From the IMG/VR virus record IMGVR_UViG_2526164601_000042: a stretch of DNA of 39,549 nt; one strand, 5' to 3'. Below are positions 30,001 to 33,000 of the stretch, in pieces. Every line of letters begins with the position of its first letter. Positions within the stretch are counted from its first letter, which is position 1. Position numbers: made by a program. The DNA comes from a virus. Taxonomy: Duplodnaviria > Heunggongvirae > Uroviricota > Caudoviricetes.

Positions 30001-33000
30001 ATCTCTTACTTTGTGTGCGTGTTAGTTCGTTTTAGCCCGTCTCTTAAACTCTCACATCAAGAGACACGAAGACATTACGATCTTGATTCAAGATTATCAA
30101 ATGGAGATCACCAATGTTAAACATCAGAATGGGTTCCGATACGGGAGGTAAGGCAGCTATTGAAAGGCTGCTTGAGGCTTATGGATTCACAACTAAGCAG
30201 GCATTAAGCGAGCACCTGAATGTCTCAAAAAGCACTATGGCAAACAGAGTGTTACGTGACAGCTTTCCTGCTGACTGGATAATTCAGTGCGCACTAGAAA
30301 CCGGTGTTTCGTTGCTTTGGTTAGCTACAGGACAGGGAAGCATGAAAGGAGGAGCTGAGCCTGAGAAAAGTTCTCATAATGAGAACAAACAAGCAATTAA
30401 ACCGTTATCCAAACTCATAACTCCAGCTATTCCTAAAGGAACCCTGGAGAATGGACAACTCAGTATTGATGAAGAGATTTTCCTAGACCACAGCATATTA
30501 CCTGCAGATTATGAAGAATCGATGTTCTTAGAAACCCCTACTGATTGTTATCTCATCGATAAATCAATTAAACAGGTCAGCAATGGATTCTGGCTTATCA
30601 ATATTGATGGAATGATTATTGTTGCAAAAATCATGCGGATTCCCGGCAATAAGATTGTAGTAAATCAAGATGAAGCGTCTTTCGAGTGCTCTACTGATGA
30701 TGTGGAAGTTATTGGGCGTGCAGTCAAAGTAATAAAGAGTATCTAAACATGACTGTCAGAAAACAGCCAAACGGTAAATGGTTGTGCGAGTGCTATCCCA
30801 ATGGACGCAATGGCAAGCGCGTGCGTAAGCAATTTGCTACGAAAGGCGAAGCCATTGCTTTTGAAAGCTTCACAATGGAAGAAGTGAACAAAAAACCATG
30901 GCTGGGGGAAAAGGAAGATCGGCGACACCTATCAGAATTAATTGAGCAGTGGTATTCCCTGTATGGTCAAACACTCGCAGACCCCAAGCGCCTCATGGCG
31001 AAACTTAGAATTATCTGTAATGGTCTAGGCGATCCCATCGCCTCAGAACTAACAGCCGGTGACTTTACGAAATACCGCGAAGCACGGTTAAAAGGTGAAG
31101 TACGAAATGAAGATGGCACGCTTATGTCGCCCGTTAAGCCCCGCACGGTAAACCTTGAACAGCGCAATCTATCATCGGTGTTCGGTACATTAAAAAAACT
31201 AGGACACTGGTCAGCACCAAACCCGCTGGCAGGACTTCCGACCTTCAAAATTACCGAAGGTGAGCTGGCTTTTCTTTCCGTGGACGAAATCAAGCGCCTG
31301 TTGGCTGCATGTGCTGAATCTCAAAGCTCGAGCCTACTAATGATTGCAAAAATATGCTTAGCTACCGGCGCACGGTGGAGTGAAGCCGAAAACCTTCATG
31401 GCCACCAAATATCGAAATACCGAATTACTTATACAAAGACAAAGGGCAAGAAAAACAGAACAGTACCAATATCTCAAGATCTGTATCACGAACTCCCCAA
31501 AAACAGAGGGAAGTTATTCACGCCATGCAGAAAATCTTTTGAGCGTGCAGTAAAAAGAGCAGGTATTGACTTGCCAGAGGGCCAGTGCACGCATGTATTG
31601 CGCCATACATTCGCTAGTCACTTTATGATGAATGGCGGAAATATTCTTGTATTGAGAGATATTTTAGGGCACTCAGATATAAAAATGACAATGGTCTATG
31701 CCCATTTCGCACCAGAACATCTTGAAGATGCTGTTACTAAAAACCCCTTATTTAACTTAAAGTGATAAATAAAAATGCATATTCAACAAGAACTCGATGA
31801 AGAACTTAATAATCTTTTTGACACTATTAGAAAAAAATCAAGTATTCGACCACCAATTGAGATTGAAAAAAACCTTACTTTGATAGATGACTTCGCTCTA
31901 AAATGCAGTAAATTCCGGGGTTGTTTAGTAGATTACATCCAGGAAAATGATAACAGGTTAAGTTTACGCTTGCGCAATAGACTTAGAGCTGTAGATATCA
32001 TGCAGAAAGAAATCGTCTCGTGTTTAGAGTGTTTTTTATCAGGGGATATTAAGTCGGCATATGACTCATTTGAAAGTATGCTAGAGCCACGAACTATATC
32101 TCGTCATATTGAAAATATATGCATACCTCTTTCTGACTTATGTAATGAAGATAAACCATTATTCCGCGTTAGAAAATCTGATACGCCACTTACATCAAGA
32201 AGAGATATGTTTCATATTCCGTTCAGTCAGCGTCACTTTGTTAGAGCACAGAGATTTTCAGTTGCTGGTCTACCCTGTTTATATTTAGGAACATCTCTTT
32301 ATATATGCTGGAGAGAAATGGATAAGCCAGATTTTGATAAGCTATATATATCTGCCTACAAGATCGATAAAAATAATGACTCAAAGGTACTAAATATAGG
32401 ACCTGATTTTTTATATAAACAGAGATCTATATTAGAGTCAAAAAGAAAGAACAAATATGATTTCAATACCAAACTCTCATATTTAGCACTTTGGCCTTTG
32501 ATAATTGCATGCAATTATTTAAAAAAATATGACAATGCTTCCTTTGTACAAGAATATATTATCCCCAATCTTTTGATGCAATGGATCAGTCGGAACAGCA
32601 ATGAGAATGTTGTTGGTATAGCCTACCGCTCAACAAAATTACCTGCTAATGCCTTAGGTAGCAGAGGAATAAATGTGGTACTTCCTCCAAAAGTGCGTTA
32701 CGAGGAGATGGCCAATAATGAATTTTGTCCAAATCTAGCGAAAATTTTCAAATTCACATTGCCTGTATCTTGGCAGGTCCTAAAAACAGTTGAGTACGTG
32801 CCTGAATCAGTTGCACAATCCGATCGAGAGAATCTCAGCAGAAGGCTACGGAGAAGAAAAAATCGTGAGCTAACAGGAAGCATAGATGATGAAATTTTGA
32901 ACATCTATAATTTAACTGACTTTTATAAACTCGAAACTTGTATGGATGAAATTCAAGTATATGCCCATATTAAACCATGATAGTAATGGCGACATTTTGG

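Follow-up and report, generated by a model that had tools for sequence, protein, structure and literature searches.

A stand-alone RES-like protein of the YopC-like family between integrase and attachment site in a P2-like prophage

The aRES proteins, stand-alone two-domain RES proteins from Escherichia coli, Klebsiella and Enterobacter, protect their hosts against phages. They convert nicotinamide adenine dinucleotide (NAD+) to nicotinamide and ADP-ribose-1''-phosphate (ADPR-1''P), and catalytic mutants lose defence (Osterman et al., preprint of January 2026, bioRxiv 10.64898/2026.01.28.702374). An aRES is defined as a stand-alone RES protein of 300-600 amino acids (aa) in which HHsearch detects an N-terminal PF18870 domain with a value above 80%. 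The R-Y-N residues of RES proteins are the counterpart of the R-S-E triad of ADP-ribosyltransferases (ARTs) (PMC9503650). Here we describe a 401-aa protein which, judging from sequence comparison, is most likely a cousin of the aRES defence proteins. It is encoded by an open reading frame (ORF) with an ATG start at positions 31775..32980 on the plus strand (stop codon included) of a stretch of 39,549 nucleotides (nt), IMG/VR virus record IMGVR_UViG_2526164601_000042, which was analysed at its full length and is called the window below. The protein is assigned to the YopC-like family (PHROG 7835) as a RES-domain protein that stands alone.

By its structural model and by profile alignments, the protein has the RES fold of the ART superfamily and carries the RES catalytic residues. 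The AlphaFold2 (AF2) model, a check proposed in the preliminary description of this DNA, reached a predicted local distance difference test (pLDDT) value of 83.4 and a predicted template modelling (pTM) score of 0.85, and it has the three-dimensional fold of solved RES toxins. When compared to these structures, the model scored highest with MbcT (9.4, 152 residues aligned), followed by NatT (8.0), VPA0770 (7.5), ParT (7.3) and Pseudomonas putida Res (7.2). With hhalign, the family profile matched three validated aRES proteins at 90% probability with an E value of 1.6e-6 over 171 columns, corresponding to aa 122-311, and a single aRES sequence at 85.9% (sequences from Table S4 of bioRxiv 10.64898/2026.01.28.702374). 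In these alignments, LFRVR of the window family pairs with LFRAR of aRES, QRFS..LYLG..WRE with GRMN..FYGA..AEV, and GIAYRSTK..INVVL with GVSFKSTQ..YNVVL. The comparison with the MbcT family yielded a local match only (24.5%, E 8e-4), which lies in catalytic register: F161 pairs with W48, Y170 with Y58 and E181 with E69 of MbcT, the sequence of which was checked against 6fkg. Since F161 pairs with W48, R160 corresponds to MbcT R47.

R160, Y170, E181, S286 and N300 occupy the RES catalytic positions, following the R/Y/E/S/N register of aRES. The first three are part of the motif RAQRFSVAGLPCLYLGTSLYICWRE (aa 157-181, 32243..32317, plus strand) and do not vary in any of 43 close or 75 distant relatives. 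H147, S162, G165, P167 and W179 are likewise invariant in relatives of only 24-38% identity. The remaining two belong to a second RES motif, GIAYRSTK...GINVVLPP (aa 281-305, 32615..32689, plus strand), which both BLASTP and hhalign pair with GVSFKSTQ...GYNVVL of aRES. Close relatives all share S286 and N300, the latter of which is also kept in at least 90% of the distant ones. The RES-like signature pointed out in the preliminary description is thus borne out by the model fold, the hhalign match to aRES and the invariant catalytic residues.

The RES catalytic core spans aa ~122-340 (32138..32794, plus strand) and is flanked by two further regions on the same strand. According to the secondary structure of the model, aa 1-118 (31775..32128) form a variable N-terminal domain of five helices, for which we propose a regulatory or sensor function. 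The C-terminal helical region (aa 341-401, 32795..32977) carries a conserved Y378/D382/F383/E387 motif. The core is interrupted by a variable insert of low model confidence (aa 198-238, 32366..32488, plus strand), in which pLDDT drops below 50 at aa 218-225. The catalytic core is conserved, while the N-terminal helices, the internal insert and the C-terminal helices vary: close homologues have mean pairwise identities of 0.76 and 0.63 in the two halves of the core, compared to 0.38 in the N-terminal domain, 0.32 in the insert and 0.42 in the C-terminus. Residue G90 of the N-terminal domain is invariant in relatives. As had been suspected earlier, both terminal regions match no described domain. 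The N-terminal domain gave no Pfam match in the window protein, its 43 close or its 75 distant relatives, and hhalign found no similarity of the C-terminal region to aRES.

An antitoxin or other partner gene was considered and rejected. All-versus-all BLAST of the neighbouring genes at 19 loci revealed no common partner beyond the P2 backbone, and none of ten small upstream ORFs had a helix-turn-helix (HTH) domain in Pfam. Its members thus act as solitary modules and do not form Xre-RES toxin-antitoxin pairs. Only in phage SPβ is an HTH gene, yopB, located directly 5' of yopC. There, a 75-aa Cro/C1-type YopB (locus L032, 3276-3503; HTH_26, 62.8 bits) is followed by yopC (3611-4939) in an arrangement that resembles an Xre-RES pair. 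This pairing was rejected as a general rule, as it is absent from the other examined loci. At a metagenomic locus (L015), a 218-aa ORF (890-1546) with a HEPN_RiboL-PSP match of 23.4 bits (cut-off 28.4) and a Bac_DNA_binding gene were observed 5' of a distant homologue.

The window contains a P2-like prophage of the 186/Fels-2 type, which is integrated at ssrA. Its near relatives are Escherichia phage Cartapus (strain LF82) and Salmonella phage RE2010, with which the region shares 99.8% identity, while three complete E. coli genomes match it at 100%. The ssrA gene for tmRNA was located at 698-1060 with ARAGORN. Its 3' end holds the attL core (1016..1060, unstranded), of which a perfect 45-bp direct repeat forms the attR core (33100..33144, unstranded). 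Because these repeats bound the prophage, the RES-like gene lies within it, in the interval between int and attR, and the attR core begins 119 nt beyond its stop. In P2 and 186, int adjoins attP. The spacing between attL and attR is 32,084 bp here, compared to 33,368 bp reported for Cartapus; a shortfall of about 1.3 kb must thus lie somewhere in the part of the prophage beyond the region studied.

Three genes follow each other on the plus strand in the order cI-int-RES. A 186-type CI repressor (30114..30746; Phage_CI_repr, Phage_CI_C) is the first gene of this putative operon, and an ssrA-specific tyrosine integrase (30749..31765) stands directly 5' of the RES-like gene. The intergenic distance between int and the RES-like gene is 9 nt, so that the ATG is found 10 nt past the int stop. 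The preliminary description of an AT-rich 401-aa gene at this position proved accurate in every particular. The G + C content of the gene is 0.347 (0.284 at third codon positions), compared to 0.451 for int and 0.524 for the remaining prophage; in windows of 1206 nt, the prophage has a mean of 0.528 ± 0.053. The gene is thus an AT-rich accessory cargo gene (moron) of atypical composition inside an att-delimited prophage. A chance ORF is disfavoured, since we estimate p ~1e-13 for 401 open codons at ~7% expected stops.

Searches of two databases with the window protein yielded 298 homologues and 2,692 clusters at 50% identity, respectively. The protein gave a full-length match to phrog_7835, a profile of unknown function, in which aa 1-400 align with positions 1-395 of 396 at an E value of 1.4e-198. 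Only 9 phage records contain a homologue, while the exact 401-aa protein is present on at least 1000 contigs. The same slot in the cI-int-gene order is occupied by homologues of 37-71% identity in prophages of Salmonella, E. coli, Citrobacter, Enterobacter and Raoultella and in phage SopEΦ. The gap between int and the RES-like gene is 3-9 nt across prophages (3-6 nt in the homologous ones), or the two genes overlap, and in 13 related loci the ssrA core is found ~100-135 nt past the RES-like gene. The gene had been described earlier as inserted between int and the att core; it is indeed AT-rich cargo, but the recurrence of the family in this slot shows that it is not a one-off insertion. In a Citrobacter prophage (L018, 3810-4937), an extra 375-aa ORF is located between int and the RES-like gene, and the slot between int and att can therefore hold more than one gene.

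In enterobacterial prophages, the RES-like protein diverges far faster than the adjoining integrase: int is 89-95% identical between prophages, whereas identities are 37-70% for the RES-like protein and ~51% for CI. Beside a conserved int, the alleles have thus diversified to an extent typical of an immunity gene. Solitary distant relatives were found in Pectobacterium, Obesumbacterium, Aeromonas, Ferrimonas, Bacteroidales, Clostridium, Terrisporobacter and Lachnospiraceae, in addition to yopC of SPβ, and no integrase gene adjoins those of Aeromonas, Ferrimonas, Bacteroidales and Clostridia. In Obesumbacterium proteus (L012, 5483-5785) and Enterobacter chinensis (L017, 4310-4954), integrase fragments are located 5' of an intact RES-like gene, which seems to outlive the prophage in both species. 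Copies split in two ORFs were observed in Aeromonas bestiarum (L022, 4837-5999) and in a metagenome-assembled genome of Bacillota (L031, 4977-5788); these are probable pseudogenes or frameshifts.

Neither a sigma-70-like promoter nor a terminator-like hairpin was found on the plus strand from cI to the end of the RES-like gene. The first terminator-like hairpin 3' of the operon (33194..33208, plus strand) is located past attR and is probably the native ssrA terminator; no plus-strand terminator-like site is present at 30114-33193. Because of the 9-nt spacing and the lack of promoter- and terminator-like sites, we infer that the RES-like gene is co-transcribed with cI and int. In LF82 lysogens, the int transcript was reported at about one third of the level of cI.

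Taken together, the most likely reading, to which we give about even odds, is that the protein is a lysogen-expressed, single-protein effector of superinfection exclusion or abortive infection that acts by depleting NAD+. In this model, low-level co-transcription with cI and int would supply the protein in lysogens, and its accessory parts, namely the N-terminal domain, the insert and the C-terminal region, would keep the RES core inactive in cis and sense a phage cue. A superinfecting phage would then trigger the protein, leading to the destruction of NAD+. By analogy with MbcT and aRES, the reaction may be a phosphorolysis to nicotinamide and ADPR-1''-phosphate. The collapse of NAD+ would arrest the cell and abort the infection, protecting the lysogen population and hence the prophage. 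The stand-alone status of the family fits such a self-contained sensor-effector. The mode of action would be aRES-like, yet the YopC-like proteins are a separate family with a different N-terminal domain.

Several observations weigh against this interpretation. By the formal criterion of Pfam, the 401-aa protein is not a member of the RES family: the HMM search with Pfam RES (PF08808), which had been proposed as a check of the signature, gave 11.9 bits (E 0.23) and covered aa 146-182 only. This score is below the gathering threshold of 23.2 bits, which was reached neither by the window protein nor by any individually scored relative (14-22.5 bits). Sub-threshold but consistent matches, which speak for the RES assignment, were nevertheless obtained for 25 of the 43 close and 31 of the 75 distant relatives, the best distant one with an E value of 6.3e-6. 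SPβ YopC and two Terrisporobacter relatives yielded 21.0-22.5 bits at profile positions 17-137, with 22.4 bits at positions 17-126 for YopC. The PF18870 domain of aRES was absent from the window protein and 118 relatives in hmmscan (21-41 bits in aRES). Foldseek searches of PDB and BFVD gave no match at E ≤ 0.001, and no RES chain was retrieved when PDB sequences were searched by phmmer and by profile, using the protein as well as close, divergent and core-only alignments; designed helical bundles were the sole matches of the divergent-relative alignment. PADLOC and NCBIfam had no match for the 401-aa protein.

Further points on the same side concern function and expression. Some RES enzymes, such as ParT, ADP-ribosylate proteins rather than depleting NAD+. 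DNA with a G + C content of 35% may be silenced by H-NS. Copies in decayed prophages or plain chromosomal settings are in themselves no pointer to defence. In the supplementary expression table for LF82, int is the last entry and the RES-like gene is not listed; because of this missing row, the absence of the gene from the moron list of the LF82 paper is uninformative. In the literature searched, no functional study of the YopC-like family was found, no paper with the protein accessions and none pairing yopC with SPβ.

The nearest solved structures are those of toxins of toxin-antitoxin systems involved in persistence or stasis (NatT: PMC11535050). The protein could likewise be a dormancy, persistence or prophage-addiction toxin, which causes self-regulated arrest on stress or prophage loss in the manner of NatT and MbcT, and the gene kept beside integrase remnants after prophage decay in O. 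proteus and E. chinensis is in line with this. However, no conserved antitoxin gene accompanies the family, so the logic of a labile antitoxin does not apply, and the strong allelic diversification beside a conserved int favours conflict with phages, as does the precedent of aRES. We regard a toxin of this kind as unlikely. The same holds for a ParT-like ART that would modify a host or phage protein such as Prs, or nucleic acid, and thereby cause exclusion or lysogenic conversion. The known activity of ParT allows for this alternative, but the best match in sequence-profile comparisons is aRES, an ADPR-1''P producer, and most characterised RES enzymes deplete NAD+.

A role that serves the phage itself could be the remodelling of host NAD+ during establishment of lysogeny or induction, counter-defence, or assistance of integration at ssrA. 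The coupling of the gene to int is tight and in places translational, with a start-stop overlap in SopEΦ, and in every enterobacterial prophage examined the gene is linked to the same ssrA-type int. This link does not extend to the relatives from Aeromonas, Ferrimonas, Bacteroidales and Clostridia described above. Moreover, P2 and 186 both integrate although they lack a gene of this kind, and an enzyme that destroys NAD+ would be a burden while the phage itself is growing. We regard a phage-serving role as quite improbable. Least plausible of all is that the protein is catalytically dead or functionless hitch-hiking cargo with a relic resemblance to RES: the sub-threshold Pfam score, the split or pseudogenised copies (L022, L031) and an AT-rich composition that may mean silencing would agree with it, but R160, Y170, E181, H147 and G165 are invariant at 24-38% overall identity, the 2,692 clusters are of conserved length, and the exact protein is as frequent as stated above.

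Returning to NAD+-depleting defence, a wider proposal can be made only tentatively, and we hold it to be less probable than the function suggested for the window protein. YopC-like proteins may represent a second widespread family of single-protein RES immune effectors that deplete NAD+, independent of aRES and equipped with a hitherto undescribed helical sensor domain of their own, which would comprise ~2,700 clusters from Enterobacteriaceae to Clostridia and Bacteroidales. In P2-like phages integrating at ssrA, the gene would be wired to the cI-int operon, switched on in lysogens and lowered in the lytic phase, by analogy with promoter interference in 186. If active, the protein would provide a second architecture for RES-based immunity by NAD+ depletion and an example of a defence gene built into the repressor-integrase operon of a temperate phage, and it would bear on superinfection exclusion, the host range in phage therapy and the silencing of toxins without an antitoxin. 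This architecture occurs very commonly in Salmonella and also in prophages of pathogenic E. coli. With variable N-terminal, insert and C-terminal parts beside a conserved core, the family is a tractable system for the question of the trigger. If it is inactive or has another role, it is an ordinary, already annotated prophage accessory gene.

The RES identity and the position of the gene are already part of public records. In the Cartapus record (2022), the identical protein CARTA_33 is named "putative RES protein, NAD+ binding domain", and UniRef lists the window protein as "RES domain-containing protein", a name that RefSeq also gives to SPβ YopC. The gene in the same slot of SopEΦ was recorded in 2003 as "orfY, similar to YopC". 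The novel part is the accessory domain and the fixed place in the cI-int operon.

Further cargo was observed in the window. A 160-aa ORF just inside attL (1184-1666, plus strand) corresponds to the 'putative exonuclease' of Cartapus (CARTA_32 / LF82_783), which was reported as one of only two Cartapus morons and as expressed 15-fold above background in LF82 lysogens. It shows weak BRCT matches (19.5 bits, below cut-off) and also weakly matches the PADLOC candidate PDC-S48 at the C-terminus of the latter (E 1.8e-7). In the circular phage, attP alone separates this ORF from the RES-like gene, and both are encoded on the same strand. A second AT-rich cargo island of the prophage (8800-10800, G + C ~0.34-0.39) contains a 377-aa Acyl_transf_3 protein (9139-10272, plus strand; 93 bits), which adjoins a tail-fibre assembly gene (10541-11137) and is probably a lysogenic-conversion gene of the O-antigen acetylase type. 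A second element (33268-38531) follows in tandem at ssrA right after attR. It starts with a P4-type integrase (33268-34539) and features an AT-rich minus-strand gene pair, Response_reg_2 (35063-36829) and HEF_HK/HATPase_c (36813-38531), with an IS3 next to it. This pair may be a conflict system; PADLOC found no significant match for it.

In Salmonella, more islands with known defence genes often lie beyond the ssrA site 3' of the RES-like gene, and ssrA therefore looks like a stacked defence locus in this genus. At two of these loci (L003, 8776-11648; L004, 9128-13227), we observed a faint SIR2_2 match with DUF87 beside P4-like psu/delta genes, and a Qat-like set of QatB/QueC/TatD/KAP_NTPase.

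Compared to the cargo hotspots of P2 (old/tin and Z/fun), the slot described here is also a fixed backbone point with AT-rich, fast-evolving accessory DNA. It differs in holding one family as highly divergent alleles at an ssrA-type site, while the P2 hotspots hold many unrelated systems. The preliminary description was right that the position falls outside both classical P2 hotspots, but the interval between int and att has now been published as a minor defence hotspot with 3% of P2 systems (PMC13586616, 2026 NAR study).

Among individual proteins, orfY of SopEΦ is 47% identical to the window protein and occupies the identical int-orfY-attP(ssrA) slot. For SPβ YopC, the identity is 30% across 68% of the protein (E 4e-35, tblastn); it differs in its length of 442 aa and its central location in a 134-kb Bacillus phage, 3' of the HTH gene yopB. 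The Xre-RES toxins (MbcT, P. putida Res, ParT, NatT, VPA0770) are 144-250 aa in length and are neutralised by an Xre or MbcA-type antitoxin encoded next to them, whereas the 401-aa window protein has additional N-terminal (118 aa) and C-terminal (60 aa) domains and no conserved antitoxin gene.

The closest comparison is that with aRES. The N-terminal domain of aRES is PF18870 (HEPN_RES_NTD1) with CxxC pairs at its start, to which the helical domain of the window family is unrelated; an aRES-type N-terminal domain was rejected after hhalign of the two domains gave 0.5%. Pairwise BLASTP between aRES and the window protein aligns only 45 residues, and the Pfam RES score is 53-55 bits in aRES as opposed to 11.9 in the window protein. 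In addition, the window gene is fixed in the cI-int operon of a prophage. The YopC-like family is thus outside the PF18870-based definition of aRES, and the aRES gene list, which has no Bacillus subtilis or LF82 entries, is in keeping with this. On the other hand, both are proteins of ~400 aa without an operon partner, in which an N-terminal accessory domain is followed by a RES domain. Their RES cores are homologous, with R, Y, E, S and N aligned, and both are found in Enterobacteriaceae on mobile or defence-associated DNA.

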